Positions 42,294-60,015 of a stretch of 64,000 bases of DNA are shown one piece after another. The notes under the pieces are model-generated. The model ran no database searches and was not told where the DNA came from. It saw only the letters and a program-made list of their open reading frames with translations. How positions within the stretch are numbered: the first letter of the stretch is position 1; every line of letters begins with the position of its first letter. Source of the DNA: an uncultured Poribacteria bacterium (GTDB lineage Bacteria; Poribacteria; WGA-4E; WGA-3G); the NCBI GenBank assembly GCA_951813565.1, contig OX638351.1, forward strand, positions 160,001 through 224,000, given 5' to 3'. Position numbers and translations under genes: made by a program.

Positions 42294-44915
42294 ATGCAAC
42301 GTCTTTTCACTTTTTGGCTTTGTGTTATTTTTGTCAGCGGCTTTTGTCTTCCGATCTTCTCACAAGAAGAAAAAAAAGAGGCTAAACCTGCTACACAGGC
42401 AACACCAGCAAAACAAAAAAAGGAATATGAGGATTTTAATAAAGTAACGGAAGACAGTAAAAGTTTTCAAGGTTTTTTCAAACTATACCAGAAGAAAGAA
42501 AACCTCTATTGCGAAATACAACCTTCGCAATTAAATAAACCCTTTTTATGCATGATCAGTATTGCGCGCGGCTTAGGAACAGGATACCTTCTTTCAGGTA
42601 TGACCATGGATGAATGGTTGCTTGAATGGCGGCGTGTCGGTGACCGTGTGCATCTTGTGCGAAAAAATGTGCGTTTTCGTGCTAATAAGGGAACACCGAT
42701 AGCCGAAGCAGTAGACTTGGGATATCGCGACTCTGTACTTTTCGCTCTCAAACTTGAAAGTGTCCATCCACAACGAAAAAGTTTGTTAGTAAATATTTCA
42801 CCCGTATTTATATCTGACCTGCCACCTTTGTCGGGTCAAATAGGTGGTGGTGCCCGTTTTGATAAAACACGTAGCACATGGGGAGCAGTTAAAGCGTTTC
42901 CCAAAAACGTTGAGTTGAGAGTTGATGCGGTTTATTCTGCAAGTGGCAGTCGTGAAACAATTCCTGACAGTCGTGGTATCCAATTATCAGTCCACTACAG
43001 TCTCGCAGAACTACCATCAAACAACTATCAACCCCGCTTGGCTGATGATCGTATGGGACATTTCATGACGACAGTTAAAGATTTCTCACTTAACACCAGT
43101 GATGAACCGTTTGTGCGTTTTGTCAATCGTTGGCACTTGGAGAAGGCTGACAAGAAAGCAAAGTTTTCACCTCCAAAAGATCCAATTATATTTTATATAG
43201 AGAAAACCGTTCCACACCGTTTTCGTCCTTATGTGCGGCAGGGCATTCTGGAATGGAACAAGGCATTTGAAAAAGCAGGTTTCATAGATGCAATTGAAGC
43301 ACGGATTCAGCAGGATCATGAGGACTGGGACCCAGAAGATGCTCGGTATAATACAATTCGTTGGGTCGTAGGTGCATCCTTTGCAATTGGACCCTCTCGC
43401 GTGAATCCGCTGACAGGACAGATTCTGGACGCGGATATCCTTGTCGGTGAAAGTTGGATACGATCTTGGCAGCGTGAGTATACAACTTTCTTTGATGAAG
43501 TAGAACATGAACGCAACCATCCGATTGATCATTCATCACGACATAACTGTCAAATGGCTACTGGGCTTGCACGTGAAATGGGTTTCATGGCGAGCGTACT
43601 CCAAGCACGTGGGATGATTGATGATGGAGAACTTCCAGAAGAATTTATCGGACAAGCACTTAAAGCATTGATTATGCACGAAGTCGGTCACACATTAGGT
43701 ATACGACACAACTTTAAAGCGAGTACGATATATTCGCTTGATGAACTAAACAAGAAGACTGGTAAAGCACTCCACGGTTCCGTGATGGAATATGATGCTG
43801 TGAACATCGCACCGGAAGGCAAAAAACAGGGTGATTATTATACAACAACAATCGGCCCCTGGGACTACTGGGTGATTGAATACGCTTATAAACCAATTAG
43901 TGGTAGCAAGCCAGAAGCAGAATTACCGGAGTTGCAGAAAATCGCTTCGCGTGTGGCAGCCTCGGAACTTAGATATGCTACTGATGGTGATGCTTCAATG
44001 TATCAATATCGTGACCTTGATCCGTTAGTCAATCGGTGGGATCTTGGTGCGGATCCGCTTGAATTTGCTAAACAACGTCGAGAAATTGTGGCAGGACTAT
44101 GGGACGAGATTGCAGACAAAGTCACAACAGATGGAATGGGTTATCAACGAGTCCGACGTGCATTCAGATCACTGCTGGGGCAATATAGTCGTGGCATGTT
44201 CCTTGCAGCACGTTTCATCGGTGGACAATACCATCATCGGGACCATAAAGGGGATGAAAATGGGCGGTTACCTTATGTGCCTGTTCCTGCGAAAAAGCAG
44301 CGTGAAGCACTAAAATTTATCAAAGACTACGCGCTATCAGACGAAACTTTCGATTTTCCACCGAAGCTGCTGAACAGCATCGCAATTACTCGGTGGAGTG
44401 ATTGGGGAACAAGTAGTGGAAATTCTTCACGATTGGATTACCCGATTCACGACGTTATTCTGCGAAACCAAAGCCAAATTTTAGGACGGTTGCTTGATCC
44501 GAATGTTCTTGCACGTGTTCAAGATACAGAACTCAAGTTTTCTGACGATGAAGATGCGTTCACATTGCCAGAACTCTTCACGGGAATTACGGATGCTGTT
44601 TGGGTTGAACTTGATAAGAATGCTGATGCAAAACAGTGGACGAATTCAGATGCATTTATCTCCAGTTTCCGTCGCGGTTTGCAGCGTGAACATCTGAAGC
44701 AGCTTATCAAACTCGTGTTAGATGCAGACAGCGGCACCCCTGAAGATGCAAGGTCCCTTGCACGTCTCCATCTCAAACAAATCAATGAGCGTATCAAGAA
44801 TGTGCTGCAAAATTCCAAGGATAAGCTGGATGATTACAGTTTAGCACATTTTGAAGAATCGCAAGTTCGCGTTGAGAAAGCGTTGGATGCAAACTTCCAA
44901 GTTGAAAAACGTTAA
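42294..44915 (+). CDS. Secreted Zn-dependent metalloprotease (DUF5117/DUF4953 type)
   Basis: Signal peptide; PRLADDRMGHF; HEVGHTLGIRHNF; SVMEY Met-turn. Confidence 0.9.
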   Translation: MQRLFTFWLCVIFVSGFCLPIFSQEEKKEAKPATQATPAKQKKEYEDFNKVTEDSKSFQGFFKLYQKKENLYCEIQPSQLNKPFLCMISIARGLGTGYLLSGMTMDEWLLEWRRVGDRVHLVRKNVRFRANKGTPIAEAVDLGYRDSVLFALKLESVHPQRKSLLVNISPVFISDLPPLSGQIGGGARFDKTRSTWGAVKAFPKNVELRVDAVYSASGSRETIPDSRGIQLSVHYSLAELPSNNYQPRLADDRMGHFMTTVKDFSLNTSDEPFVRFVNRWHLEKADKKAKFSPPKDPIIFYIEKTVPHRFRPYVRQGILEWNKAFEKAGFIDAIEARIQQDHEDWDPEDARYNTIRWVVGASFAIGPSRVNPLTGQILDADILVGESWIRSWQREYTTFFDEVEHERNHPIDHSSRHNCQMATGLAREMGFMASVLQARGMIDDGELPEEFIGQALKALIMHEVGHTLGIRHNFKASTIYSLDELNKKTGKALHGSVMEYDAVNIAPEGKKQGDYYTTTIGPWDYWVIEYAYKPISGSKPEAELPELQKIASRVAASELRYATDGDASMYQYRDLDPLVNRWDLGADPLEFAKQRREIVAGLWDEIADKVTTDGMGYQRVRRAFRSLLGQYSRGMFLAARFIGGQYHHRDHKGDENGRLPYVPVPAKKQREALKFIKDYALSDETFDFPPKLLNSIAITRWSDWGTSSGNSSRLDYPIHDVILRNQSQILGRLLDPNVLARVQDTELKFSDDEDAFTLPELFTGITDAVWVELDKNADAKQWTNSDAFISSFRRGLQREHLKQLIKLVLDADSGTPEDARSLARLHLKQINERIKNVLQNSKDKLDDYSLAHFEESQVRVEKALDANFQVEKR

Positions 44916-45022
44916 ATACTTGTCTTTCTCCGCGTAGGGCGGGGTCCCTGTGCCCCGCCAATGCTATCTGCACATTTGGCGTTGATATAAAATGTCAATT
45001 CCTATAGTAAGCGCGCCTATCC

Positions 45023-45303
45023 TTATATATAACGTGAGCTTGATAAATCCCGTAGGGAATCAACACCGAATGCGCCTACGGCATTCGGTGGGGTAGAACG
45101 GAAATGGACAATAAAAACAGACCCTAAAGAGAGGTTATTTTCTTCGTTCATTGCGTTTATAAATGCATAACCATAACAGAGCTCCTCTAATTCCTCGGGT
45201 TCATAATCAATACTTCCTGATTGATCATTGTCAGCAATAATAGAGCTTACAATAATGCAACTGACCATCACAAAAAGAAAACGGAAAAAAGTCGTTTTTT
45301 TAT
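45023..45303 (-). pseudogene. Cassette 1 gene B, degenerate
   Basis: ATA start-like codon at 45303 (IKKRLFSVFF), 1-nt frameshift into VMVSCIIVSSIIADNDQ, 3' part replaced by a REP/hairpin insertion near 45050-45100. Confidence 0.55.
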
Positions 45304-45308
45304 TCCTT

Positions 45309-46055
45309 CTAATGTAGGTTTAGGTACTGATATGGATCAATACCTGTAGTCTCAAAATCTAAAACTTGTATGTGGGGTGGTGGATTTAAAAGGTCAATAT
45401 CTGCAGGAGGCGGACTTCCACCTTTTATGCGTGTTATAAAAGGTTCCAGAGTCCCATCAGGTGCTTCACGCTCTTCCACGATGATATAATACGTGTTGAA
45501 GAAGTGAGGATACACTTTGTCGTTTTCAATAGAAGCTCCCTCAAAGTTCCTTATTCCTTCTGACCAGAGTTTGACCAAAACCCGCTCCATGAGTTCAAAA
45601 CGTCTTTGCTTATAGGATGGCAGACGTTCGTAGTATTCCATATCCCGCCAAGTAATACCGTAGGGATAATCAGCAGGGACTTTTGGAAACGGACCGAACC
45701 CGTGTGGTGATATAGGCACTTCCGCTGTCTCAGCGTTTTCTGATGGCTTTTCAGTTGATTGTGACTGTACCGCCACTTCGGGCCCTTCTGCCCCCCTATC
45801 AGGGGCTTCAGTTACAGGTTTCTCTGCGGTTTGCATATTGCTTTCCACAGGTGTCACATCGGCCGCCTGTTCTGCCTCGTTGTTTACCGCTTTTCGGGTT
45901 ATTTCCCGTTGACGGAGTAACTTAGCGGATTCCACTGCCTCTTGTCTATAAGGTGCTGTATCGTGTTGGTACCATAAATAACACGCACCTGCAATTATTA
46001 TCAGGAGGGCAATAGCACCAATAAACCATTTATTAGTGATGATGTCGCGAATCAT
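45309..46055 (-). CDS. Cassette 1 gene A: membrane-anchored protein, C-domain family I
   Basis: Shared N-terminus; SPHGFGPFPKVP...ELMERVLVKLW...GIDPY. Confidence 0.85.
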   Translation of the reverse strand: MIRDIITNKWFIGAIALLIIIAGACYLWYQHDTAPYRQEAVESAKLLRQREITRKAVNNEAEQAADVTPVESNMQTAEKPVTEAPDRGAEGPEVAVQSQSTEKPSENAETAEVPISPHGFGPFPKVPADYPYGITWRDMEYYERLPSYKQRRFELMERVLVKLWSEGIRNFEGASIENDKVYPHFFNTYYIIVEEREAPDGTLEPFITRIKGGSPPPADIDLLNPPPHIQVLDFETTGIDPYQYLNLH

Positions 46056-46432
46056 CTATAACCTCCGATTGTTGTGTGACACACCACATTGACGTGTCTG
46101 TTATGAGAGTTTGCTCGATGCACCGTGGTTTTCCACTTGTCAGTGGAGGACGCGCACTATGCGCTTTGTGTATTCGGTGAGGTATCTTCAGTAATTAACA
46201 ACAATTATACAAGAACTGAAACAAAATGCTCAAGCAATTAACAATAATTTATGTGAAACGGGTGATGGGATATTATGATCGACTCTGCTATTTTTCTCAT
46301 ATTGTGCGCAAGGTGAAAGCGTTTGTCAGTTTATAGCAAAATTTAGGAAAAGAGTGAAGTAAGTGAAAAAGTAAAGGCAGATACCCAATCGGATACCTAC
46401 CTATAGATTGTGAAGATATATAACGCCGCCGG

Positions 46433-47011
46433 TTACCAGGGTATATGAGAGTATGCGTCCAAAGCACCATTCCAATTCATGTCATAAGCATAACCGTTTA
46501 TTGAACCTGATGTAGAACAATCTGATGCTGTATTCGAAGGATGAGGATATTGACCTTGTAACGTCTTTGATTCGGAATGATATGCTTTGGCACGATCATT
46601 GTGCCTGCCTTCAAATTCTGGATAGCCGCCACTATAATCCCAAGGACCAAAGTCACTATCTTTGGTCTCACCGTCCACATATATTAACGCATCCACCCAA
46701 TAATAACCCCTGTAGAAATTGCTGTTGCACCTAATATTTGCCTCACAACTCCATGATGCGTAGGAGTATGCAGTGACAGGTACATTTGCAGTAGTCGTTT
46801 CAGTGCTGGTGTCGGCAGAAAAGGGCCATTCATAATCACTCGCGTTTTTATACCACTTGTCAGTATATCTTATACCAACTAAAGTATTGCTATTGTAGCT
46901 GTGTCCCCATTCACTATGTCCACCATTGTTTGAACCTTCGTTATGATCTGAGAAAACGATAGAAGTACCCAGACATAACAGCGTTATTGATAAGTACGAG
47001 AGTATTCTCAT
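46433..47011 (-). CDS. Cassette 2 gene B: small secreted protein ending AYSHIPW
   Basis: Signal peptide; starts 8 bp after gene A stop. Confidence 0.8.
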   Translation of the reverse strand: MRILSYLSITLLCLGTSIVFSDHNEGSNNGGHSEWGHSYNSNTLVGIRYTDKWYKNASDYEWPFSADTSTETTTANVPVTAYSYASWSCEANIRCNSNFYRGYYWVDALIYVDGETKDSDFGPWDYSGGYPEFEGRHNDRAKAYHSESKTLQGQYPHPSNTASDCSTSGSINGYAYDMNWNGALDAYSHIPW

Positions 47012-47018
47012 GAGGTAT

Positions 47019-47753
47019 TTACTCCTTTTTGCTAAGTTCTAAGAAGGAATACGGATCGATTCCTGCTTCATTACGACTAAGAACTGTAATGCCTTCAGGA
47101 GGAGGTTGTCCTGCCTCCAATGCTGCTTCTATAGCATCAAAGTCATCATCGGGGTGCCCCGTAATCCTTCGAATGAATTCTCCATTTTCTGCCCATTGAA
47201 CGTAGACAGTGCCTAATATGTTTGGATAGACTTTACCGTTTTCAAAGGAAGCGCCATCCGATCGAATACCTTGATTCCATAACTTGATGCGAACCCGTGA
47301 CATTAATTCCCCCTTTACAGTTTTGCCCCAGAATTCCCATTCGAATTTGTCTGGTGGAATAGGATAATCTGCTGGCACTTCTGGATAGGGACCGAAACCG
47401 AAAGGCGACACAGGCACATCCTTTGCCTCAGTGGTTTGGGCAGAGGTTTCGGATTGTTGTTGTCCCGCCGCTTCGGTGTTATTTTCCACTTCAGCGGTTG
47501 ACCCGTTGATAGATTTCTCTGTGGTTAGCGTATTGCTTTCCGCAGGTGCTTTCTCTGCCGCCTGTACTGCTTCGTTGACTGTATCCACTTTTTTAGCGGC
47601 TTCTTGTTGACGGAGTAACTTAGCGGATTCCGCTGCTTCTTGTCTGTAAGGTGCCGTATCGTGTTGGTACCATAAATAACACGCACCTGCAATTATTATC
47701 AGGAGGGCTATCGCACCAATAAACCATTTATTAGTGATGATGTCTCGAGTCAT
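47019..47753 (-). CDS. Cassette 2 gene A, family I
   Basis: Shared N-terminus; SPFGFGPYPEVP...ELMSRVRIKLW...GIDPY. Confidence 0.85.
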   Translation of the reverse strand: MTRDIITNKWFIGAIALLIIIAGACYLWYQHDTAPYRQEAAESAKLLRQQEAAKKVDTVNEAVQAAEKAPAESNTLTTEKSINGSTAEVENNTEAAGQQQSETSAQTTEAKDVPVSPFGFGPYPEVPADYPIPPDKFEWEFWGKTVKGELMSRVRIKLWNQGIRSDGASFENGKVYPNILGTVYVQWAENGEFIRRITGHPDDDFDAIEAALEAGQPPPEGITVLSRNEAGIDPYSFLELSKKE

Positions 47754-48088
47754 CTATAACCTCCGATTGTTGTGCAACACGCCACAACGGCATGTCTGGT
47801 ATGAGAGTTTGCTCGATGCACCGTGGTTTTCCACTCGTCAGTGGAGGACGCGCACTATGCGCTTTGTGTATTCGGTGAGATATCTTCAGTAATTAACAAC
47901 AATTATACAAGAACTGAAACAAAATGCTCAAGCAATTAACAATAATTTATGTGAAACGGGGGATGGGATATTATGCGAAGTTGTGCTATTTTTCTGATAT
48001 TGTGCGGCGGGCGAAATCGTTTATAAGTTTATAGCAAGGTGTAGGGAAACAAAAGCGTGGTAAAGGACTGAAGGTGGGTGAAAAGTAA

Positions 48089-48117
48089 AGGCAGATACCC
48101 ATAAAGGATATCTGCCT
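48089..48117 (-). terminator. Intrinsic terminator-like hairpin after a B gene (homologous copies at about 46375, 52694, 54358, 56083)
   Basis: aggcagata-loop-tatctgcct followed by a T-rich tract on the minus strand. Confidence 0.7.
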
Positions 48118-48132
48118 CTACTTTTATTAACG

Positions 48133-48609
48133 TTAAAAACTGGCGTCAGCTTTGTCTGTACTGCTATCATCATCTGGAGAAACATCCGCGTCAGCCGAGA
48201 CAGTAATATTACGGGGACTTCGGAAGTAGAATTTCTCTGGATGATAAAGCGAATCACTGTCATGCCCCTCATAACGCTCTATTATTACAGGCTTACTCTG
48301 TACAAATAGGCGATAAGCTCCAGTATTCGTTTCGTTATTCGAATTGAGTCCGGTTGTCCAGAAACCGGCGAGTTCCGTGCCTTCTGTGTAGGGAATACCC
48401 CAATCTCTACCTGTAGATTTCGAAACGACTGCCTGTGCCCCCGCGGAGTGTACGACGTTTGATTCTGTACGCACTATCCAACCAGTGCCATCGGCGTTAA
48501 ATTGCTGAGCATTTGTATCAGCATGGTGAGCATCTATATGTGAAAGTGTTGTAATCGCAATAAGTGCGATAATTATCAAAAATGCTCTCACAAACTTTTT
48601 AATATACAT
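48133..48609 (-). CDS. Cassette 3 gene B: small secreted protein ending ADASF
   Basis: Signal peptide; AGGAG RBS. Confidence 0.8.
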   Translation of the reverse strand: MYIKKFVRAFLIIIALIAITTLSHIDAHHADTNAQQFNADGTGWIVRTESNVVHSAGAQAVVSKSTGRDWGIPYTEGTELAGFWTTGLNSNNETNTGAYRLFVQSKPVIIERYEGHDSDSLYHPEKFYFRSPRNITVSADADVSPDDDSSTDKADASF

Positions 48610-48624
48610 TAGTAAATCTCCTTT

Positions 48625-49389
48625 TTAATTTTTTGTCTTGGAAATACCAAGATATGCATACGGATCAATGCCTTCCGTTTCACCATCTAACACACGCATA
48701 CCCGGAGGTGCAATACCAAGACGCATCTGCTCTGGAGACAGAGTCCTTCCTTTGACGCGTGTAAAATATCGGGTTATAGTGCCATCAACCTCTTCTCTTT
48801 CCCCATACCACACATAGATGGTATTGGGATAGTTAAAATAGATTTTGTCGTTGGCACCGCCTATGCCGATCCAGTTACGATGCAGTCCTTCTTGCCATGC
48901 TTTTATCGCCACACGAGACATCAGTTCTGCTTCCTCAGGTAGCATGATATTCGGAAACTTGGGATGATCCCAAATCGGTCTATAAGGATTTCCTACGCTA
49001 TCAAGCATACCTTCTGGTACTTCCGGATAGGGCCCGAACCCGAACGGAGACACGCGCACTTCTGATTCCGCTGCGTTTTCTGATAGCGTTTCCGATTGTT
49101 GTCCCGTCGCTTCGGTGTTGTTTTTCACTTCAGCGGTTGACCCGTTGATAGATTTCTCTGCGGTTGGCGTTGTGCTTTTCGCAGGTGTTACATCGGCTGC
49201 CTGTTCTGCCTCGTTGTTTTCCATTTTTTGGGTTGTTTCCCGTTGACGGAGTAACTTAGCGGATTCGGCTGCCTCTTGTCTATAAGGTGCCGTGTCATAT
49301 CGGTACCATAAATAACACGCACCAGCAAATATTATCAGGAGGGCAATAGCACCAATAAACCATTTATTAGTGATGATGTCTCGAGTCAT
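48625..49389 (-). CDS. Cassette 3 gene A, family I
   Basis: Shared N-terminus; SPFGFGPYPEVP...ELMSRVAIKAW...GIDPY. Confidence 0.85.
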   Translation of the reverse strand: MTRDIITNKWFIGAIALLIIFAGACYLWYRYDTAPYRQEAAESAKLLRQRETTQKMENNEAEQAADVTPAKSTTPTAEKSINGSTAEVKNNTEATGQQSETLSENAAESEVRVSPFGFGPYPEVPEGMLDSVGNPYRPIWDHPKFPNIMLPEEAELMSRVAIKAWQEGLHRNWIGIGGANDKIYFNYPNTIYVWYGEREEVDGTITRYFTRVKGRTLSPEQMRLGIAPPGMRVLDGETEGIDPYAYLGISKTKN

Positions 49390-49792
49390 CTATAACCTCC
49401 GATTGTTGTGTGACATGCCACAACGGCATGTCTGTTTTGAGAGTATGCTTGATACACCAAAAGTTTTCCACTCTTTAGTGGTTGACGCGTTCTGATATAT
49501 GTTAGGTTTTCGAGATTGATGTTTCACCGTGATTAGCAATAATTATACAACATAAACATTGAAATGTCAGGTAATTAACGTAAAATAGCAGCTTTTGTGA
49601 ATAATAATACAAAAACTGGATGACTATAATGAGTCTGGAAGCTATGTGAAGTGGGTTTTGGGTATTATGACAGGCTGTGCTGCTTTTCTGATATTGTGCG
49701 GCGGGTGAAATCGTTTGTGAGTTAATAGCGAAGAACTAGGGTACTTGTGTGTGATTGACAACCAATCCCTAAAACGTCTTTCCGTGATCTAA

Positions 49793-50647
49793 TCAGCGTG
49801 GTGAGCGTGAGAAGTTGAGTCTCACTTTAGGATCGTAGTCGGATACTAAGACCTCGGGAAAATCAAGTATTGATTGGATAACCCAATCAATACGATTCGC
49901 TCCAGTATGAGGTTCCTTTTTATTAGGATCTGCATTGGCAGAATAGTACATTGCTGCTTCATGTAAGGGTCCTATTAATTTTATGCTAGCACGTTTGGGA
50001 TTATACTTTTCTTTTACCTCTTCTGCAATCGCCTTAATCTTGAGTAAATCTTCCTCGGAAACCTCTCTGATGTACTTCCCAATTAATTCCGGTGGACATT
50101 GTAAATGTTTTGGGACACCGTCTGCAAAGAATGGATTTATTGAGGTTTGGTAAGTTTTGCCTTCTTTTACTCTTTGTTCTCGTTTAAGTAAAATCCAGCG
50201 ATGGAAGTCCGCGAACCTTACATATTCGGGGAAATCAAGTATTGATTGGACAACCCAATCAATACGATTTGCTCCAAGTTGAAAATCCTCTCGTCCACGG
50301 TATCCTCTTTTCAGAGGATCTGAGTTGGCATGGTAATCCAATTGTTTCTTTGCATGAAGTTTCCATGTTTCTGTTACAGGACGTTTTGGGTTATAATTTG
50401 TAACTATCTCCTCCGCAATTGCTTGAATCTTAAGGATATCCTCTCTGGTGACTTCTGCGATATATTTTCCTATAAGTCGTTGCGGGCATTGTAGATGTTC
50501 TGGAACACCGTCTCCGAAAAGCGGATTTGATGAAGCTTGGAGGGTTATTTGATTTTGATTCCAAACCAGGATTCCCACAATGAAAAGAGCACAGACGAAA
50601 ACAAGCATTCCAAGAACGAAAAGGCTTGAAAAAAACTTGCGTAGCAT
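49793..50647 (-). CDS. Membrane-anchored protein with two tandem copies of the family II domain
   Basis: NP.F.DGVP.HLQCP..LIGKY...YNPKR...ANRIDW..QSILDFPE occurs twice; homologous to the cassette 4 gene A C-domain. Confidence 0.82.
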   Translation of the reverse strand: MLRKFFSSLFVLGMLVFVCALFIVGILVWNQNQITLQASSNPLFGDGVPEHLQCPQRLIGKYIAEVTREDILKIQAIAEEIVTNYNPKRPVTETWKLHAKKQLDYHANSDPLKRGYRGREDFQLGANRIDWVVQSILDFPEYVRFADFHRWILLKREQRVKEGKTYQTSINPFFADGVPKHLQCPPELIGKYIREVSEEDLLKIKAIAEEVKEKYNPKRASIKLIGPLHEAAMYYSANADPNKKEPHTGANRIDWVIQSILDFPEVLVSDYDPKVRLNFSRSPR

Positions 50648-50754
50648 TTGTTTTAATCTCCTTTGATATTGTCCAGAGTACCGTAAATATAATCAAGGCA
50701 CACCCATGAGCCTGTTCTTGTGTGCCTTGATTATATTTTATCTAAAGATTCTAA

Positions 50755-51405
50755 CTACCCTTTAGGGGCAGCGATACTTGCGTTACCGAGTCCTATGTTT
50801 ACAAATTGGTTTGAATCGCCCGAAATTTCAGCTGCCATGTGCGGATCGGCTGTGAGATTCGTGGGAGTTGTAGGATGTGTATCACTATAGTAACAATAAA
50901 TAGACAAATCAAACGAGCGTGTTACTTGTTCTGCCCATGGCCAGAAGTGATCCCACCAATTTTGCACAGTACTTGCAACGGGATGTTTTTTGTAGGCAAC
51001 TTCAGACTCACCATTGCCGTGCGAATCATAAAAATAACTTCTACCTTCGCTGTCCCGCTCAGTACGATTTGTGTGAATGTTGCTTTTATCTGGAATTGAG
51101 GCATTGGCTGTATCTCCTGTTGCTTGAACCCACGCTGTAGCGTCGTAACTCGTGTTGTCACCAATAGGGGAAGCACTTGCCGAAGCATAGGTAGATGACC
51201 CGACATACCAATTTCCGTTTGGCTTATAGGTATGAGGCGGGGACCAGTCGACATGTGCGAAGGTGGACCCTGAAACATCAAGGAAGGTACTTGCGTCTGT
51301 AGCAGAATCAAACCAATCCTCTATGACTTGCGCGTCTGATAAATAAAATGAGAGGGTTAGTATAACCAGAATAATTGTAAGTGAAATCTGCAAACCTTTC
51401 TTCAT
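50755..51405 (-). CDS. Cassette 4 gene B: secreted protein
   Basis: Signal peptide; ATGA overlap with gene A stop. Confidence 0.8.
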   Translation of the reverse strand: MKKGLQISLTIILVILTLSFYLSDAQVIEDWFDSATDASTFLDVSGSTFAHVDWSPPHTYKPNGNWYVGSSTYASASASPIGDNTSYDATAWVQATGDTANASIPDKSNIHTNRTERDSEGRSYFYDSHGNGESEVAYKKHPVASTVQNWWDHFWPWAEQVTRSFDLSIYCYYSDTHPTTPTNLTADPHMAAEISGDSNQFVNIGLGNASIAAPKG

Positions 51406-52355
51406 TTGTTATCTCCTAATTTATAGATCCCTGTTGTATAGGGGTTAATATTGTAGTTCCAGCCTCCAAGGCGTTCAAGTTCTTCGTCAGTAGTTTCGTT
51501 TAAGTCAATGGTAATACGTTCAGCATCTGCACCTGAGTGCCCCAGACCGTAGATTGTTCCTGAGAATTTGTCATCATCACCAGAACTGTATATGAATTCA
51601 TAGTAGAATCCATTATCCGTGCGAAATTCTCTCCCATCCGGTAATTTGTGAAGATTCCAGTTGGGATCCCATCCTCCTTGTTCTACCATGATCATATCCG
51701 TTGCTCTAATTGAGTCTTCCCTAAGAAGTATAACAATTTCCGGAAAATCAAGAATTGATTGTATTCCCCAATCAAAACGATTTGCCGCTACACCGAGGCC
51801 CTTCTTGGTAGGATCTGCGTTAGCATGATAATATTTATCAGCCTCAATAAATTGTGGCCAGACTTCTGGTAGGGGACGGTTTGGGTTATATTTTTCAACA
51901 ACCTCGTTGGCAATTTCACCAATCTTACGAAGTGCCTCTATTGATACCTCTGTGGTGTAAATACCAACTAATTCTTCTGGACATTGTAGGTGTTTTGGAA
52001 CACCGTCCGCAAAAAGCGGGTTGGATGAAGTGAATCCACTAACATGAGACATATCAAAGACTGCTGCGTTTTTCTCTGTTTCCGACTCAGCGTCGGAAAC
52101 ATCAGAAATATCGGAAAGTTTTTCTTGTTTTCTTCCGAAAGATTCGCTTTGTGCAGTATCGGCCTGTTCCACTTCACTTTTATTGTCCGCTTTTTGGGTT
52201 GCTTCTTGTTGACGGAGTAACTTAGCGGATTCGGCTGCCTCTTGTCTATAAGGTGCCGTATCGTGTTGGTACCATAAATAACACGCACCAGCAAATATTA
52301 TCAGGAGGGCAATAGCACCAATAAACCATTTATTAGTGATGATGTCGCGAATCAT
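51402..52355 (-). CDS. Cassette 4 gene A, C-domain family II
   Basis: Shared N-terminus; SSNPLFADGVPKHLQCPEEL...QSILDFPE...NINPY. Confidence 0.85.
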   Translation of the reverse strand: MIRDIITNKWFIGAIALLIIFAGACYLWYQHDTAPYRQEAAESAKLLRQQEATQKADNKSEVEQADTAQSESFGRKQEKLSDISDVSDAESETEKNAAVFDMSHVSGFTSSNPLFADGVPKHLQCPEELVGIYTTEVSIEALRKIGEIANEVVEKYNPNRPLPEVWPQFIEADKYYHANADPTKKGLGVAANRFDWGIQSILDFPEIVILLREDSIRATDMIMVEQGGWDPNWNLHKLPDGREFRTDNGFYYEFIYSSGDDDKFSGTIYGLGHSGADAERITIDLNETTDEELERLGGWNYNINPYTTGIYKLGDNK

Positions 52356-52747
52356 CTATAACCTCCGATTGTTGTGTGACACGCCACAACGGCATGTCTG
52401 TTATGAGAGATTTTTTGTGATGCACCGTGGTTTTCCACTTGTCAGTGGAGGACACGCACCATGCGCGTCTCTTTTTAGTGCGTTATCTCTCAGTGATTAA
52501 CAATAATTATACAAGAACTGAAACAAAATGCGCAAGCAATTAACAATAATTTATGTGAAACGGGTGATGGAGTATTATGAGAGGTTGTGCTATTTTTCTG
52601 ATATTGTGCGGCGGGTGAAATCGTTTGTGAGTTCATAGGAAAAACTTTGGGAACAAAAGCGGTGGAAAAGGGTGAGAGGTGGATGAAAAGTAGAGGCAGA
52701 TACCCATAGGATATCTGCCTGTATGAAATCAAAATTAGTAACAACAT

Positions 52748-53263
52748 TTACCAGGGGATATAAACGCTGGTACTCCATCTTTTCGAAGATTCTCTAACAT
52801 CTCTTGCAGTGGCGTAACCATCTGCAAGACAGTATTCTATAGTGTCGGTTGTATCATACATATTAAACCAGTCCATATCACTGGTATACGCACCTTTATT
52901 GAGATACCTACGCCATTCACCACTTCGACCATCCCACTTATTCATCTCTATTACCCAATCATGGTTTAGCGTGGCACTTACGGTATAAGTGCCTTTGAGA
53001 AATTGAGAAGTCATGGCTCTGACTCTCGTTGATGCCTTGACCTGATGTCCTATTCCCTGCCACGCTTTTGTTCCTGCAGAACTCCATACCTCAACATCAC
53101 CATCATAAGCAGTTCGGGTTACACTGGCAGGAATTGGTGGAGGATCTACTACCTCTTCAGTACCCCCTCTGTTTGTTCCAGGTGATGCTTTCAGAAGTGA
53201 AGTAAATGTTGCTATTGTACATAGAATTAGCATAAGGGTTAGAAAAATCGCCACATGTTTCAT
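52748..53263 (-). CDS. Cassette 5 gene B: secreted protein ending SVYIPW
   Basis: Signal peptide; AGGAG RBS. Confidence 0.8.
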   Translation of the reverse strand: MKHVAIFLTLMLILCTIATFTSLLKASPGTNRGGTEEVVDPPPIPASVTRTAYDGDVEVWSSAGTKAWQGIGHQVKASTRVRAMTSQFLKGTYTVSATLNHDWVIEMNKWDGRSGEWRRYLNKGAYTSDMDWFNMYDTTDTIEYCLADGYATARDVRESSKRWSTSVYIPW

Positions 53264-53276
53264 GATAAAAAACTCC

Positions 53277-54023
53277 TTAAGGTAAATCTAAAAATTCGTA
53301 CGGGTCTATGCCCGCATCTTTATATTCAATAACTGTAAAATGTTCCGGAATGTCACTTTCATAAATAGTACCTCGATGGGAATCTTGCCAGGATTCAGTT
53401 TCAGGGGATCCCTGTATCATACTGGCATATCTTCTCGTTCCAAAAGGGGTCCGTTGGGTTTTCCATTTAACAATCAGCGTATTGGGATACGTCGGATAAA
53501 CTAATCCATTTTCCATTGCTTCACCGTGAGTCTTTTTCCCTTGTTCCCATAGCTTAATGCTAACACGAATCATTAATTCATCGTTTTTATCCCAGTCGTA
53601 ACTCCAAAAATTCGGATCTTCTCCCCCAGGATACCCATCAGGTAATTTTGGATATGGACCGAAACCGTAAGGCGACACTTTTACTATTTCCGTCTTTTCA
53701 GTTTCCTGCATAGATGCAGTAACGGCTTCAGTTTGTTCATTGGAGCTTATTTCCGTTTCTGCACCAGTCGCATTGGTTAGCGGTTTCTCACCATGTTGCG
53801 TATTGCTTTCCGCAGGTGCTTTCTCTGCCGCCTGTACTGCTTCGTTGACTGTATCCACTTTTTTAGCGGCTTCTTGTTGACGGAGTAACTTAGCGGATTC
53901 GGCTGCCTCTTGTCTATAAGGTGCCGTGTCATATCGGTACCATAAATAACACGCACCAGCAAATATTATAAGGAAGGCTATCGCACCAATAATCCATTTA
54001 TTAGTGATGATGTCTCGAGTCAT
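53277..54023 (-). CDS. Cassette 5 gene A, family I
   Basis: Shared N-terminus; SPYGFGPYPKLP...ELMIRVSIKLW...GIDPY. Confidence 0.85.
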   Translation of the reverse strand: MTRDIITNKWIIGAIAFLIIFAGACYLWYRYDTAPYRQEAAESAKLLRQQEAAKKVDTVNEAVQAAEKAPAESNTQHGEKPLTNATGAETEISSNEQTEAVTASMQETEKTEIVKVSPYGFGPYPKLPDGYPGGEDPNFWSYDWDKNDELMIRVSIKLWEQGKKTHGEAMENGLVYPTYPNTLIVKWKTQRTPFGTRRYASMIQGSPETESWQDSHRGTIYESDIPEHFTVIEYKDAGIDPYEFLDLP

Positions 54024-54401
54024 CTATAACCTCCGATTGTTGTGTGACACACCACATTGACGTGTCTGTTATGAGAGATTTTTTGTGATGCACCGTGGTT
54101 TTCCACTCGTCAGTGGAGGACGCGCACCATGCGCGTCTCTTTTTAGTGCGTTATCTCTCAGTGATTAACAATAATTATACAAGAACTGAAACAAAATGCT
54201 CAAGCAATTAACAATAATTTATGTGAAACGGGGGATGGGATATTATGCGAAGTTGTGCTATTTTTCTGATATTGTGCGGCGGGCGAAATCGCCACTAAAT
54301 TTATAGTGGGATTAGGGAGCAAAAGCGTGATAAAAACTGAAAGGTGTCTGAAAGAGTAGAGGCAGGTAACGTATTGGTTACCTGCCTCTGTTTGCTGTAG
54401 A

Positions 54402-54980
54402 TTAAAACGGCACATGTGCATAGGCACTATGCTGTACCGGTCCACCGCCATTGCCATCACCATCATCTCCTGAACCGCTGTCCCCACCCCCTCCTGGTAC
54501 CGGTGGAACTGGTGGTCTGAACCCAGTAATCCACGCCCACGAGGAAGCAAACGTAATATCGGGGAAGCCAGGAATAGGCCCAGCCCCTTTGGCAAAACTA
54601 GCAGATTGACTCTCGCTATCGTATGTACTTCCCTGAAAAGTACCAGGGTGCGCGCTTGGACCAAATCCTTGTATCCATACACTTGCAGAGACCCAATAAG
54701 TCCCTGTAAACATAGGGTCTACGGAATATGAGTACACAGCACTATTCGATCTGACTATATCTACATTATTATTGTTGTCTGTGTACGCTGCTCTATAAGC
54801 ATCTGCTTCAAGAGGGCCGTTAACATCATAGCCGCGTTCCCAGTTCCCCACCCAGCCTGTAGCAGGATCAAATTGTCCTGCGTCTTCCAAATCACGATTG
54901 GAAGTCTCACCTGTGAAACCTATAACGGCTACACCACAGAGTAAGGCTATTACCAGTAATCTGTAAATAATTCGTTTCAT
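54402..54980 (-). CDS. Cassette 6 gene B: secreted protein with Gly/Asp linker, ending AYAHVPF
   Basis: Signal peptide; AGGAG RBS. Confidence 0.8.
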   Translation of the reverse strand: MKRIIYRLLVIALLCGVAVIGFTGETSNRDLEDAGQFDPATGWVGNWERGYDVNGPLEADAYRAAYTDNNNNVDIVRSNSAVYSYSVDPMFTGTYWVSASVWIQGFGPSAHPGTFQGSTYDSESQSASFAKGAGPIPGFPDITFASSWAWITGFRPPVPPVPGGGGDSGSGDDGDGNGGGPVQHSAYAHVPF

Positions 54981-54993
54981 GAACTTATCTCCT

Positions 54994-55746
54994 TTATTTT
55001 AAGTTTAGAAAAACGTAGGGGTCAATGCCCCTCTCTCTCACTTCAATATCCTTCGGAATGTCACTCTCAACAAGTTTGCCTTTTCGTCGCATGATGTCAC
55101 TGAGAATTTTTCCCATGTAGGGGTCACCGCGCACACGGGATACACGTTTTTCTACAGTACCGTCTGGCAGTGCCTTATGATCCCATTCAATATAAACCAC
55201 CCCAGGAAGAGTAGGGTAAGCCAATCCGTTACTCATATTTCCACCGAGTGTTTGTATTCCTTGTGTCCAGAGCTTGATTTGGACGCGGATCAGCAGTTCA
55301 GCCTCTGCGCTGTAATCTTTGGAATAATCCCAAATATCTTGAGTCGGGTAATCCGGTGGGATATCCGGAAAAGGTCCAAAACCGTGAGGAGAAACGCGTA
55401 CTTCTTCAGCGTTTTCTGTTCCCTGCTTAGAGGCAGAAACATTCTCCGCTGCAGTATCGGTTTTCGCACCTGTTTCTAACACTTCATCAGTCATTTCGGT
55501 TATAGGTTTCTCTGCGGTTGGCGTTGTGCTTTCCGCAGGTGTCACATCGGCTGCCTGTTTTTCCGCGTTCTCAGTCTCCGCTTTTTGGGTTGCTTCCCGT
55601 TGACGGAGTAACTTAGCGGATTCCACTGCCTCTTGTCTGTAAGGTGCCGTATCGTGTTGGTACCATAAATAACACGCACCTGCAATTATTATCAGGAGGG
55701 CAATAGCACCAATAAACCATTTATTAGTGATGATGTCTCGAGTCAT
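54994..55746 (-). CDS. Cassette 6 gene A, family I
   Basis: Shared N-terminus; SPHGFGPFPDIP...ELLIRVQIKLW...GIDPY. Confidence 0.85.
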   Translation of the reverse strand: MTRDIITNKWFIGAIALLIIIAGACYLWYQHDTAPYRQEAVESAKLLRQREATQKAETENAEKQAADVTPAESTTPTAEKPITEMTDEVLETGAKTDTAAENVSASKQGTENAEEVRVSPHGFGPFPDIPPDYPTQDIWDYSKDYSAEAELLIRVQIKLWTQGIQTLGGNMSNGLAYPTLPGVVYIEWDHKALPDGTVEKRVSRVRGDPYMGKILSDIMRRKGKLVESDIPKDIEVRERGIDPYVFLNLK

Positions 55747-56140
55747 CTATAACCTCCGATTGTTGTGCAACACGCCACAACGGCATGTCTGGTATGAGAG
55801 TTTGCTCGATGCACCGTGGTTTTCCACTCGTCAGTGGAGGACGCGCACCATGCGCGTGGTGTATTTAGTGCATCTATCTCTCAACAATTAACAATAATTA
55901 TACAAGAACTGAAACAAAATACTCAAGCAATTAACAATAATTTATGTGAAACGGGGATAGGATATTATGAAAGGTTGTGCTATTTTTCTGATATTGTGCG
56001 GCGGGCAAAATCGTTTATAAGTTTATAGCAGAGATTTAGGGAACAAAAGAGTGGTAAAGAGTGAAGGTAGGTAAAAAGAGTAAAGGCAGATACCCATAAG
56101 GATACCGGCCTGCCTGATTTATATCAGATCATGTTGTGCG

Positions 56141-56857
56141 CTAATGTGCACTTGCATTTGGACAATTCGGATTTGCGTCTGTACACTCATCACAGTTCGG
56201 GGTGAGATCCGAACTACTGGTGCTGCTACCACTATCATGTGTCCAGGTCCAGCTTGAATGTTCTACGGTCCAATGTCCATCACTATCCCCTGTAGTGGTA
56301 GCGGTGGCTCCGTTTTCCCATGTTCCAGATACCCCTAAGGGTAATCCAGCTCTGACCTTGTAATAATACGGAGTGTAGTGGACTACTCCGTCGCCTTCCC
56401 AGGGATATGTACCTTCTGCCTCGTTGAAAGTGCCTGTTTCTGTGGCACTAACTTCTACGTCATGGCCATAGGATCCGAACGGAACACCTGGAACATACCA
56501 TCCGATCTCTATAGCTCCAGTCAAGTTTTGTTCGTTACCAACGTCCTCACCATCTATCTTACCCCATAATTGTACTTGTGCAAAGCCAAGTCCATGTCCT
56601 TTACTTTCGAGTTTGATAACAGGATCCTTTGGATGGTTATTCCAGAGTTCCTCATCAAAAGAACCATCTGCGTTATAGTAAGAAACTTTGCGAAAGGTCC
56701 AGCCATCTATATTACAAGAAATTGTGGGACTTGTTACTTCTAAAAACTTATTAAAAGGGTTATGGTCAAGAGTGTTTATAACCGCATTGTGTGCATATAA
56801 ATTATAAACACAAACCAAAACGATGAGTGTAAGGATAATGTATCGTCGTTTTAACAT
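56141..56857 (-). CDS. Cassette 7 gene B: secreted protein with Ser linker and Cys-rich tail
   Basis: Signal peptide; abuts gene A stop; ends TPNCDECTDANPNCPNASAH. Confidence 0.8.
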   Translation of the reverse strand: MLKRRYIILTLIVLVCVYNLYAHNAVINTLDHNPFNKFLEVTSPTISCNIDGWTFRKVSYYNADGSFDEELWNNHPKDPVIKLESKGHGLGFAQVQLWGKIDGEDVGNEQNLTGAIEIGWYVPGVPFGSYGHDVEVSATETGTFNEAEGTYPWEGDGVVHYTPYYYKVRAGLPLGVSGTWENGATATTTGDSDGHWTVEHSSWTWTHDSGSSTSSSDLTPNCDECTDANPNCPNASAH

Positions 56858-57634
56858 CTATAATTCTCCTTTCTCTTCTAAGATTGGAATTAAATAAGAG
56901 TAACCATGCTCTATGAGCGCAGCTCTCAGCTTTTCTTTCATAATACGTAGCGGTTTGTCAGGATCTGCTTCCTTTTCCTTTTTAGGTGCTACCCACAATG
57001 TACTGCCTTTCACAGGACGTTCCCTTTGTACTTCTTCGTACAATTGTCCCCATTCTGCCCAAAGTTGTTCTGCTTTCGCAGTGTTACCCTGCGCTTTTTG
57101 CCATCCTGCTTCTATTTTCAGTGCCCTGAGCATTTCATATTCCTCTAAAGTAGGGGTAAATCCTATGCCCATCTTGATTTCAACAATTGGCTCGCCTCTT
57201 TTATGTAAAATCGGTTTGCCGTTCTCGTCTAATAGTGGCACACCTGGAGACTTCCATCGATAGGTATACCCCCGCGGTGGAACTTTGAGTCCATGCTGCG
57301 TATAAAAGCTATCAAATATCTGCTGCTGTTGTTTTTCTGACAGTTTATGGAAATCGGAAGGAGTGAGTGTGTTCTCCGGATTTTCATCAGATGTTAGTTT
57401 CCCAGCAGCTGGCGTTTTGCTTTCCACAGAGGCATCGATTCCTTGTTCTCCTTCACTCTTATTGTCCACTTTTTTAGCGGCTTCTTGTTGACGGAGTAAC
57501 TTAGCGGATTCGGCTGCCTCTTGTCTATAAGGTGCCGTATCGTGTTGGTACCATAAATAACACGCACCAGCAATTATTATCAGGAGGGCAATAGCACCAA
57601 TAAACCATTTATTAGTGATGATGTCGCGAATCAT
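56858..57634 (-). CDS. Cassette 7 gene A, C-domain family III
   Basis: Shared N-terminus; PPRGYTYRW..PGVPLLDENGKPILHK..EP; no family I or II motifs. Confidence 0.85.
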   Translation of the reverse strand: MIRDIITNKWFIGAIALLIIIAGACYLWYQHDTAPYRQEAAESAKLLRQQEAAKKVDNKSEGEQGIDASVESKTPAAGKLTSDENPENTLTPSDFHKLSEKQQQQIFDSFYTQHGLKVPPRGYTYRWKSPGVPLLDENGKPILHKRGEPIVEIKMGIGFTPTLEEYEMLRALKIEAGWQKAQGNTAKAEQLWAEWGQLYEEVQRERPVKGSTLWVAPKKEKEADPDKPLRIMKEKLRAALIEHGYSYLIPILEEKGEL

Positions 57635-57782
57635 CTATAACCTCCGATTGTTGTGCAACATGCCACAACGGCATGCCTGTTATGAGAGTTTGCTCGATGC
57701 ACCGTGGTTTTTCACTCGTCAGTGGAGGACACGCACCATGCGCGTCTCTTTTTAGTGCGTTATCTCTCAGTGATTAACAATA

Positions 57783-57874
57783 ATTATACAATAGATGCAA
57801 TCAAATGTCAAGCAATTAACACTGAATTGTATAATATTAACAATAATAATACACAAAAAATCATAAAATGTCAA
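57783..57874 (-). promoter_or_regulatory. Tandem sigma70-type promoters at the head of the array
   Basis: TTGACA(57811-57806)-17bp-TATAAT(57788-57783) and TTGACA(57874-57869)-17bp-TATTAT(57851-57846). Confidence 0.7.
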
Positions 57875-57928
57875 GTAATTAACAATAAATTGTCGTTTTT
57901 TGACAATAATTATGCAAAATATGTTAAA

Positions 57929-59650
57929 ACCTACACTCCGCAGTTATGGATCTGGAAAATAAACATTTTTGACTTCTATTCCTAATATGTTGATAATCTT
58001 AGACTGTATTACATTTAGGTTTACGATAGTGCGTTGTATATGATCGTTTTGTTCTATCAATAATACGTCAATATTTTCAAACATTTGAAAGATGCGTCGG
58101 AGCGTTGGGGTTTGCGTGGGTTTACCGACTTGGTTGGGTATTGTTTGTTCCTGTTTTTCTAATTCCAACCGAACCCATTGTTCCGCAAGCGCATAAACAA
58201 GTAGCGAAAGTCCCATCACCATCAGTAATGCCATGATCCGTTGGGGTTTTTCTAAATATAGACTATTGGCAAAGAATAAAGGGTCTTTCAAAAACCGAAA
58301 ACCGCGTTCCACAGAGATGTTCTGTGCTTTATAGGCTTCAAGAATAGTGGCATCGTCAAGTAAAGTTGTATCTAACTCATTGGTAGCTAACACAAATCTG
58401 CCTTTGCTGCGTTTGAGTTTTTCAATCGCTTCTATATTCGCAACAGCTTCGCCCTCAATACGATAACGAAAGTGTGTGGGGTTATCTGTTTTTTTCGGTC
58501 GTCCCGATGTTGTGTAATGTGGAACAGAGATAATGGAGACGCATGGTTTATGATACTTCCAAGACTTGGATATTTCTGACACGGCAGCTTCAGCCGCTGA
58601 GTTGGTATCAAACGATTTATTTCGCAAGCGTTTGAGAGATGTTTCAGCAACAGTCTGTGCTTTGGCAATCTTTTTTTCTAAAGTCGCCACTTCACGATGA
58701 TACGCTGCTTCGGAATAAACAATTAGCCATCTTTGCGGGATATCTCCATAGCTGCTATCCACCGAAAGATAACGATACCCCTCAAGCGGTGCTGGCTGCA
58801 TATCTTCAGTAGAGATAGTTTGATAAAGTTCTTTGACAGCTTTGAGTGTTTCAGGAACACGCGTAATGAAACGCACATCACTGAGCACAGCAATGTTACG
58901 GGCAGTATAAAGCGCACTATCCGCTACAAAATAGGGCGCATCACTGCCACGCATTTGAGCCAGATACGCTCGGATCGTGTCAGGAAAACTTGTTTTATCA
59001 GCCTGATTTCCATCAAGTGCTTTGAACCATACAGGGAACTGAGACCGATAAGAACATAGAAGTTGAACAACCACTTGTTTGAGATCAGGGCGCTGATCAC
59101 GACTATACCCGTGAGTGATTTGGATCGCGTGTTCATCATCTGTTTCGGTATCATAGTTCCCATGAAAACTAAAAGTAGTGCTATCCAGATGAACAAAACG
59201 ATGGTCTATGTCAAATGTTGATAACGCCTTGGACGCAATCGTCGCAAAAAGTTCAGTGACCCCATTTTCATAAAGTGTATCTAAGGCACGCCCCAGACTA
59301 TCGTCCGTAAAATCGGCAGCACAGAGGTGAGGACGGATCAACAGGTCTACAGGTTTATTTTCAAAAAACTCTGGTGTCAAGTAGAGAGGGCGTGAAACAA
59401 AACCTAAAGCATTCAAGATCATTGCGGACACAGCTTCACCCACTGAAACTTTCCGTTTCGTTGGACCAATAAAAGTATCAATCGTGTCTATCAAGCCAAT
59501 ACGATCACACACACCGGCAACTATGCCGAGGTGATCTAAACGCTGAGTTGTAAAAGTAGGTTGAGTAATGATATTACCTCCTTATATGCAAGATATAAAG
59601 AGTATAACATAAATACTCAAAATCTGATTAAACAACTGCGGAGTGTAGGT
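57929..59650 (-). mobile_element. IS1634-family insertion sequence
   Basis: 17-bp perfect TIR ACCTACACTCCGCAGTT, 5-bp TSD TTAAA. Confidence 0.93.
57944..59569 (-). CDS. IS1634-family DDE transposase
   Basis: RLDHLGIVAG (upstream of the listed GTG), DDSLGRALD, HLDSTTF, GYSRDQRPDLKQ, VADSALY, VERGFRFLKDP. Confidence 0.92.
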   Translation of the reverse strand: MTQPTFTTQRLDHLGIVAGVCDRIGLIDTIDTFIGPTKRKVSVGEAVSAMILNALGFVSRPLYLTPEFFENKPVDLLIRPHLCAADFTDDSLGRALDTLYENGVTELFATIASKALSTFDIDHRFVHLDSTTFSFHGNYDTETDDEHAIQITHGYSRDQRPDLKQVVVQLLCSYRSQFPVWFKALDGNQADKTSFPDTIRAYLAQMRGSDAPYFVADSALYTARNIAVLSDVRFITRVPETLKAVKELYQTISTEDMQPAPLEGYRYLSVDSSYGDIPQRWLIVYSEAAYHREVATLEKKIAKAQTVAETSLKRLRNKSFDTNSAAEAAVSEISKSWKYHKPCVSIISVPHYTTSGRPKKTDNPTHFRYRIEGEAVANIEAIEKLKRSKGRFVLATNELDTTLLDDATILEAYKAQNISVERGFRFLKDPLFFANSLYLEKPQRIMALLMVMGLSLLVYALAEQWVRLELEKQEQTIPNQVGKPTQTPTLRRIFQMFENIDVLLIEQNDHIQRTIVNLNVIQSKIINILGIEVKNVYFPDP

Positions 59651-59677
59651 TTAAAATGAATATGAGCAAACGCTTTA

Positions 59678-59772
59678 GTAGGGACGATATGTTTATTCTT
59701 CTATGCCGTTCCTACGGAACTCAAGAGGCGTAGATAACATTTTTTCTATAAACATATCGTCCCTACGGGACT
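59678..59772. repeat. REP-like inverted pair
   Basis: gtagggacgatatgttta ... taaacatatcgtccctacgggact; same family as 27594-27795. Confidence 0.75.
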
Positions 59773-60015
59773 AAAGACACGGGCAAGATGGCAACACATA
59801 AAATTAACGGCATAGCAAAAAATCATCAAAATATTGAAAACTATATAACCCTGAGTACCAACAATTTTCCTTGCAAACAAAATCTCAATTGCGTATACTT
59901 TTCCAAATGCCTCTGATACGTCTTACTTCCGTATCAACATCCTACGTGTTGCAGCAAAATCTCCAACTGTAGTGGAATAAATAGAATATTAATCCTGGAT
60001 CTGCGGTACGGGTGC

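Follow-up and report, generated by a model that had tools for sequence, protein, structure and literature searches.

The window analysed here, a stretch of 64,000 nucleotides (nt) that corresponds to bases 160001-224000 of the genome of an uncultured Poribacteria bacterium (contig OX638351.1), carries an array of seven tandem cassettes on the minus strand at 45023-57943, each consisting of a promoter and leader, a gene for an N-terminally anchored protein (A) and a closely coupled gene for a small protein that is predicted to be exported (B). We tentatively interpret the array as an envelope cassette of two genes, specific to Poribacteria and present seven times, in which the periplasmic C-domain of the anchored A likely binds the exported B encoded next to it, and we give this reading slightly less than an even chance. 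The host genome is a single contig of 5.43 Mb, and the relatives of the proteins encoded in the window belong to Candidatus Poribacteria, which are sponge symbionts; positions are given in window coordinates unless the genome is named. The passages returned by full-text literature searches on Poribacteria proteins contained no account of the A/B family, and what is new here comprises the seven-cassette array itself, the concerted evolution of its 5' modules as read from synonymous sites, the dependence of B on A in their occurrence, the joints across missing cassettes and the link to an insertion sequence (IS).

Cassette architecture and the predicted properties of A and B

An earlier reading made from the letters of the window (hereafter the sequence-only reading) had described seven minus-strand units of common layout, and the listing of open reading frames (ORFs), a repeat search and sequence alignments all agree with it. 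A 300-nt unit covering the A start and the leader recurs in seven copies with 78-100% identity at a spacing of 1636-2966 nt, which is far above chance. Thirteen of the 14 A and B genes are intact, as is an extra gene X, and the genes of the array, with lengths in amino acids (aa), are the following:

A1, 56858-57634, minus strand: shared N-terminal anchor module with a C-domain that is unique in the host genome
B1, 56141-56857, minus strand: 238 aa, hydrophobic N-terminus and Cys-bearing C-terminus; weak relative of the B at genome 3854862
A2, 54994-55746, minus strand: main A family; transmembrane segment plus long helix, disordered linker and alpha/beta C-domain in the model
B2, 54402-54980, minus strand: 192 aa; all-beta model with nine strands; C-terminal end HVPF
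A3, 53277-54023, minus strand: main A family
B3, 52748-53263, minus strand: 171 aa; C-terminal end YIPW; orthologues in loci L048, L070, L039 and L069
A4, 51402-52355, minus strand: shared anchor module with a domain of a second Poribacteria-only family
B4, 50755-51405, minus strand: 216 aa; ATGA overlap with A4; no relative among the B set
X, 49793-50647, minus strand: extra third gene of cassette 4; own N-terminal hydrophobic segment or anchor and two copies of the A4-type domain
A5, 48625-49389, minus strand: main A family
B5, 48133-48609, minus strand: 158 aa
A6, 47019-47753, minus strand: main A family
B6, 46433-47011, minus strand: 192 aa; C-terminal end HIPW; orthologue in locus L052
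A7, 45309-46055, minus strand: main A family
B7 remnant, 45023-45271, minus strand: start codon gone, 3' part replaced by a dispersed repeat

The intervals between A and B in cassettes 1 to 7 are 0, 13, 13, -4 (ATGA), 15, 7 and 37 nt, and the tight coupling previously noted for intact B genes therefore holds in cassettes 1-6, where the range is -4 to 15 nt. The two-gene layout likewise stands in general, except that cassette 4 carries X as a third gene and that B7 is only a remnant, with no ATG and about 45 residues before the dispersed repeat sets in; its intact relatives in other genomes have 140 and 183 aa.

The N-termini of the A proteins had been called near-identical, and alignment confirms that 43 of the first 51 residues are invariant across all seven copies. 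The nine-residue N-terminus is net positive and the flank past the helix slightly negative, and by this positive-inside charge distribution the C-domain should face the periplasm, making A a predicted type II membrane protein with N-in/C-out topology. In 110 homologues, residues W10, C25, W28 and Y29 vary little or not at all, and this conservation of the anchor suggests that the helix may contact something in the membrane and be more than an anchor. The C-domains, on the other hand, had been described as divergent, which is true of A1 and A4, where different domains are placed on the same N-terminal module, but not of A2, A3, A5, A6 and A7, which share one homologous domain with the motifs SPxGFGPxP, ELMxRVxIKLW and GIDPYxFL. 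The domain found in A4 and X defines a second family of 102 homologues, all the source-named ones of which come from Poribacteria, in proteins of 310-340 aa with various anchors. In an AlphaFold model of A2, built on the 110-sequence alignment, a helix at residues 9-66 is followed by a disordered linker at 66-112, where the predicted local distance difference test (pLDDT) score is below 50, and by a compact alpha/beta domain at 113-250, with block-mean pLDDT of at least 95 over residues 121-250.

The intact B proteins B1-B6 differ from one another and range from 158 to 238 aa, and each has the hydrophobic N-terminus expected of a signal peptide, as the sequence-only reading had stated; export by the Sec pathway is thus predicted for B, and the view that both partners are extracytoplasmic holds as a prediction, given the positive-inside signal anchor of A. 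No canonical lipobox was seen when the cassette products were inspected. In mature form, the B proteins are acidic, with net charges from -2 to -21, and abound in aromatic and G/S/T/N/D residues. The 76 B proteins collected are very divergent and fall into many clusters, 22 of them ending in [IVL]P[FW], and proteins with this ending can be aligned to B2, B3 and B6. The B2 model, built on 25 sequences, reached a pLDDT of 88.4 and a predicted template modelling (pTM) score of 0.75, with nine strands in an all-beta arrangement behind the signal-peptide helix, so that the models of both A2 and B2 can be called confident.

That A and B match no family that can be named was confirmed by database searches. 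Pfam, NCBIfam and PADLOC gave nothing above cut-offs for any of the 15 array proteins, and the A profile found no sequence relative in the PDB. A Foldseek search of the A2 model against the PDB returned no match at E <=0.001 (best 0.33), and the best E for the B2 model was 0.008; neither model therefore gives a clear PDB fold match. The VIA-align lists for the A2 model were taken up by its long N-terminal helix and barely covered the C-domain. The Protein Atlas yielded no usable feature match for B2, its own model of the protein being poor (pLDDT 0.44) and its structure rows uninformative.

Distribution, linkage and selection of A and B

The A family comprises 711 representative clusters in a library of 1.84 billion proteins and 379 tblastn-confirmed loci in a species-level genome collection. 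The titles of 69 among the 72 distinct A loci listed name Poribacteria, the other three reading 'uncultured bacterium'. Within the phylum, A was found in 94 of 121 genomes (families f1 68/81, f2 8/9, f3 17/19, f4-f8 0/11), with 1 to at least 23 matches per genome in this draw, and no relatives of A were found on viral contigs in the viral contig collection. In the collections searched, the A family is restricted to Poribacteria. The host genome holds 37 A-family ORFs. At genome 366686-370330, three tandem, near-identical and distant A-family paralogues of 255-264 aa have a different type of anchor and no B-like partner.

Among the 22 close A members of the host genome (E <1e-30), 19 are followed within -60 to +60 nt by a B-like ORF with a hydrophobic N-terminus; when all A matches are counted, such an ORF lies downstream in 23 of 37 cases, three of the 23 being doubtful. 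In the other genomes (72 loci), such a neighbour accompanies 68 of 108 A ORFs, and 62 of these neighbours look exported, in a count that is crude and includes fragments. The question raised earlier, whether A homologues usually lack a following B, has therefore a mixed answer, with a B-like ORF after 19/22 in the host genome and 62/108 elsewhere. Seen from the other side, 16 B-like ORFs adjoin an A, and one full-length ORF and one fragment do not. B thus nearly never occurs without A, and A is often alone.

Comparison of 71 A-B pairs showed that where A C-domains are at least 75% identical, each of the 18 comparisons has related B partners, with B identity lower (83% and 65%), and where the C-domains are 60-75% identical, 23 of 30 do; no partner swap was seen among close cassettes in this set. 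The A C-domain and its B are inherited together, as one unit. The dedicated downstream partner proposed in the sequence-only reading is thus real in the sense that the pairs are recurrent two-gene units whose parts travel together. Between orthologues, the ratio of nonsynonymous to synonymous substitution (dN/dS) is 0.07-0.36 for the A C-domain and 0.21-0.63 for mature B. Both proteins are under purifying selection, and B evolves clearly faster in three of five orthologue comparisons.

The 5' modules, their homogenisation and the flanking elements

The upstream regions of the cassettes, about 380 nt long, align with 70% mean column identity and have in common a sigma-70-like TTGAGC-18-TATAAT site, a leader of about 140 nt and a GGAGG site. 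A common hairpin (AGGCAGATATCC..GGGTATCTGCCT with a T-run) stands after B1, B2, B3, B5 and B6, just as a terminator-like hairpin had been described after five B genes, and it opens five of the upstream regions, with a conserved stretch next. These modules are located as follows:

5' module of cassette 1, 57635-57943, minus strand: two tandem promoter-like copies and leader, without the upstream terminator part; abuts the IS
Intergenic module before A2, 55747-56140, minus strand: B1 terminator hairpin, promoter-like TTGAGT-18-TATAAT, leader and GGAGG site
Intergenic module before A3, 54024-54401, minus strand: recurs at genome 3723358-3723544 and 3724932-3725303
Intergenic module before A4, 52356-52747, minus strand: aligned upstream region
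Intergenic module before A5, 49390-49792, minus strand: most divergent copy, with a 56-nt insert
Intergenic module before A6, 47754-48132, minus strand: aligned upstream region
Intergenic module before A7, 46056-46432, minus strand: aligned upstream region

Synonymous divergence (pS) was compared for the nine paralogues starting with MTRDIITNKW, namely the seven of the array and two at genome 3.72 Mb, and amounts to 0.00-0.30 over codons 1-50 versus 0.64-0.86 over the C-domain. Orthologues present the opposite picture: in four distant comparisons conservation is highest in the C-domain, with identity of only 48-68% over the first 50 residues, and in two closer pairs these residues are 74% and 92% identical. 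Arrays in four other genomes have the same contrast between a homogeneous 5' part and a divergent C-domain. This difference between paralogues and orthologues indicates that the 5' module (promoter, leader and first 50 codons with the anchor) is homogenised within a genome, and that the unit of A C-domain and B is old. The 5' module accordingly undergoes concerted evolution within a genome.

Public sequencing runs show that the array varies. Contigs from these runs break at the repeated modules, and for each cassette the unique part is covered, at a depth like that of the flanks, in X1, a short-read run possibly from the source sample, and in X4, which comes from another study. In X7, one contig joins 52693 to 56084, which are homologous points of intergenic modules, across cassettes 3 and 2, and another has a junction from 46402 to 47468 across B6; an X5 contig joins 45849 to 53839, and in an X10 contig an A6-like 5' end is placed on A3. 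Uncovered stretches in X5, X7, X10 and X11 were counted as absent only where a contig joins across them. Cassettes have thus been lost at conserved modules in other samples, and cassette subsets differ between strains.

This arrangement recalls the Vlp and Vsa surface-protein families of Mycoplasma, in which a conserved promoter and 5' end are combined with a variable remainder. Like them, the cassettes have a homogenised promoter, leader and N-terminal segment before divergent coding parts and stand in tandem arrays; unlike them, they are two-gene units with no phase-variable homopolymer tract in the aligned upstream modules and no invertase gene in the array according to the ORF listing and Pfam, and their products, by inspection, are not lipoproteins.

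Several observations concern the possible control of the cassettes. Direct repeats of TTATTGTTAAT bracket every cassette promoter-like site, with one copy 5' of the -35 box and one just past the -10 box, and may be operator sites for some regulator. Before A1, the whole 63-nt promoter unit is tandemly duplicated (57773-57898). No cassette upstream region matches the -24/-12 consensus of sigma-54 promoters. The leader has three hairpins in its consensus fold, with compensatory change in 2 of 45 pairs, a covariation too sparse to call a structured RNA; a search of Rfam with 44000-60000 gave four rows only, all at chance level (E 0.69-0.77). In the leader hairpin nearest the ribosome-binding site (46041-46212 and the six other leaders), pairing is kept through several one-sided changes, and the GGAGG site has a possible pairing partner in a CCTCC stretch of the leader. 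The first part of the module, with the terminator hairpin and the conserved stretch, also occurs on its own, with 77% identity, at genome 1405364-1405534, where it adjoins the gene at 1404119-1405036; homologues of that gene neighbour a Met-zincin gene in a relative (locus L104).

Both ends of the array are marked by repeated elements:

IS of 1.72 kb, 57930-59650, minus strand: transposase ORF at 57944-59512 (DUF4277 and DDE_Tnp_1); abuts the array at its upstream end
Dispersed repeat of about 112 nt, 45028-45139, no strand assigned: 50 BLAST matches in the genome at 93-98% identity; ends the array within B7

Both transposase domains score above their cut-offs, with E 1.1e-30 for PF14104 and 1e-09 for PF01609. 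The array had been reported to contain no recombinase, and this is correct for its interior, the transposase lying directly upstream of it. Four copies of the IS exist in the genome, namely that in the window and those at genome 260917-262639, 2222030-2223748 and 3726324-3728075, and a copy with 99.5% identity cuts the B gene of a two-cassette locus at 3.726 Mb. This locus at 3.72 Mb is the only other one with the MTRDIITNKW 5' module, and the position of the IS within its B gene means that this element borders both loci of the cassette subfamily. These loci have likely undergone IS-linked rearrangement, and one may speculate that the seven-cassette array and the 3.72-Mb locus were once a single array that was split by IS recombination. 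The host genome is heavily rearranged relative to its congeners. The dispersed repeat, when translated, gives rise to spurious similar ORFs at genome 2635682, 5273088, 412855 and 4156500.

Beyond these elements, a secreted Met-zincin of 873 aa (42294-44915, plus strand; DUF5118, DUF5117 and DUF4953) adjoins the array and has counterparts with 80-94% identity in all 15 congeners searched. In stretches of 14.9-20 kb from 11 congeners, no A or B gene was found beside the Met-zincin gene in any of the 11. On the other side, a minus-strand ORF of 625 aa at 60016-61893 is built of tandem 126-nt (42-aa) periods with local GC up to 51%, and 9 of the 11 congener stretches contain paralogues of it, with 37-56% identity, next to the Met-zincin gene.

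Alternative explanations and meaning of the cassettes

Under the reading that we favour, A would be anchored in the inner membrane with its C-domain in the periplasm, B would be exported by Sec, and each A would bind its own B in a 1:1 manner. A may then serve as a private tether or escort that keeps B at the outer face of the inner membrane, following the logic of Lif and its lipase or of TolA and TolB. The target of the rapidly changing B repertoire would lie outside and be variable, whether host, phage or competitor, and the conserved 5' modules would act as recombination handles by which the variable unit of A C-domain and B is duplicated, deleted and re-headed. Lif is a membrane-tethered periplasmic foldase devoted to one lipase, and the likeness lies in a tethered periplasmic protein devoted to one co-encoded secreted partner, which on the cassette side is a prediction. 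However, the gene order of the Lif-lipase system is the reverse, B2 is all-beta and not an alpha/beta hydrolase, the cassettes are many and stand in arrays, and no lipase chaperone or lipase family of Pfam matches A or B above cut-offs.

Some of our own results speak against a tether or escort. Of the 108 A ORFs in the other genomes, 40 lack a neighbouring ORF of at least 60 aa, and some arrays consist of A only (locus L042); a tether without cargo would be odd. Co-inheritance of neighbouring genes is expected under any model, and it is thus weak support for binding. Profile comparison connects the B2 type with three further clusters, one of them that of B6 (probabilities 87, 93 and 66%), and the B1, B4 and B7 types with none; as there is no single provable B family, one A fold would need to bind very different partners.

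The main rival to this tether or escort explanation is a toxin-immunity system of reversed polarity, in which Sec would export B as a small toxin or a bacteriocin-like protein, A would be a tethered protein giving immunity to its own B at the inner membrane, and the A-only arrays would amount to orphan immunity. We consider it unlikely, while acknowledging that it accounts well for the near absence of B without A and the frequent occurrence of A alone or in A-only arrays such as L042, as well as for copy number and cassette content that vary between strains and species. It also has a parallel, since recombination between tandem paralogues is reported for immunity gene arrays of the type VII secretion system (esaG and tsaI; PMC9484751). 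Polymorphic toxin-immunity loci and such tandem immunity arrays share with the cassettes tandem non-identical paralogues, recombination at conserved segments, strain-variable content and co-inherited cognate neighbours. The cassettes nevertheless differ from toxin-immunity loci, having no toxin, immunity or secretion-system domain recognised by these databases, two partners both predicted to be extracytoplasmic, and one and the same domain as the C-domain of most A proteins. In Pfam, NCBIfam and PADLOC, the databases meant here, no toxin, bacteriocin or immunity family matches A or B, an export route beyond the periplasm was not identified, and orthologous B genes are under purifying rather than overt positive selection.

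A second alternative, which we regard as improbable, holds that the A proteins are divergent periplasm-spanning transducers of the TonB/TolA type, whose transmembrane helix docks into a shared membrane motor and whose C-domains each engage their own B, as TolA does TolB. In the Tol system, tolA is followed by tolB, TolA engages TolB, and TolB folds as a beta-propeller. The cassettes resemble TolA-TolB and TonB (PF03544, PF06519) in their order of genes, an A with N-terminal anchor, disordered linker and small C-domain being followed by the gene of a signal-peptide protein, and the strongly conserved transmembrane residues would suit a docking helix. A language-model feature search with A2 residues 112-250 provided a further lead, with TonB_C and TolA clusters at 0.94, but only 114 of the 256 features were shared. 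This lead failed at the level of sequence: none of the seven A proteins matches TonB_C or TolA of Pfam at E <=0.1 (PF03544, PF13103, PF06519), a genome-wide search with PF03544 found three other, canonical loci and no A gene, and hhalign of the A C-domain profile against these three loci gave a probability of 0.3%. The cassettes differ further in that B2 is a small beta protein and that no motor gene like those of ExbB/ExbD or TolQ/TolR is present among the 15 array proteins, in a search that covered the array only. They also exist as dozens of A paralogues, each with its own partner, and to our knowledge 37 paralogues per genome are unprecedented for TonB/TolA transducers.

Less probable still is the polarity suggested by the sequence-only reading, with A as a polymorphic toxin of conserved N-terminal delivery part and variable C-terminal toxin, and B as periplasmic immunity protein. 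A layout in which the N-terminus is conserved, the C-terminus varies more and a dedicated gene lies downstream invites this view, and so do A1 and A4, two of the seven, which carry unrelated C-domains on the same N-terminal module. This logic fits poorly, since five of the seven C-domains are one domain conserved under purifying selection, with the low dN/dS values between orthologues given above, and thus look unlike swapped toxin modules; moreover, A has no known trafficking or toxin domain in Pfam, NCBIfam or PADLOC, and its N-terminus is a plain signal anchor. B is missing for 3 of the 22 close members in addition to the 40 A ORFs of other genomes, an absence that a toxin gene could not tolerate, and lone B genes, expected as orphan immunity, are nearly absent, so that the asymmetry is the opposite of what would be expected were B the immunity gene.

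The view that the array has no function, being either decaying repeats or a product of misassembly, as the B7 remnant and the bounding IS and dispersed repeat might hint, is hardly credible in view of its intact genes, the purifying selection on their orthologues, the single 5.43-Mb contig and the short-read contigs of X1 and X4, two separate studies, the last two of which contradict an artefact of assembly.

Considered as a class, the cassettes are best placed among recombining arrays of cognate neighbour pairs, which is a known kind of system, with a real chance of something categorically new. A bolder interpretation, which is doubtful and clearly less probable than the tether or escort reading as such, is that they make up a library of pairs, each of a tethered receptor and a secreted ligand, that recombination has diversified and that is private to sponge-symbiont Poribacteria. 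Such a library would be an envelope recognition code, of strain versus strain or of symbiont versus host, made of two folds that have no solved relative, and would have no counterpart among toxin-immunity, TonB/Tol and chaperone systems.

Poribacteria are uncultivated and widespread symbionts of sponges, and their dealings with host, phage and neighbours at the level of the envelope are largely unknown. Present in up to at least 23 copies per genome in one part of the phylum, variable between strains, under purifying selection and homogenised at its 5' ends, the cassette family is a strong candidate for such an envelope interface. It also offers two confidently modelled domains, the A C-domain and B2, without a clear solved relative, and a clean natural example of a concertedly evolving module of promoter, leader and anchor beside old and divergent coding units.

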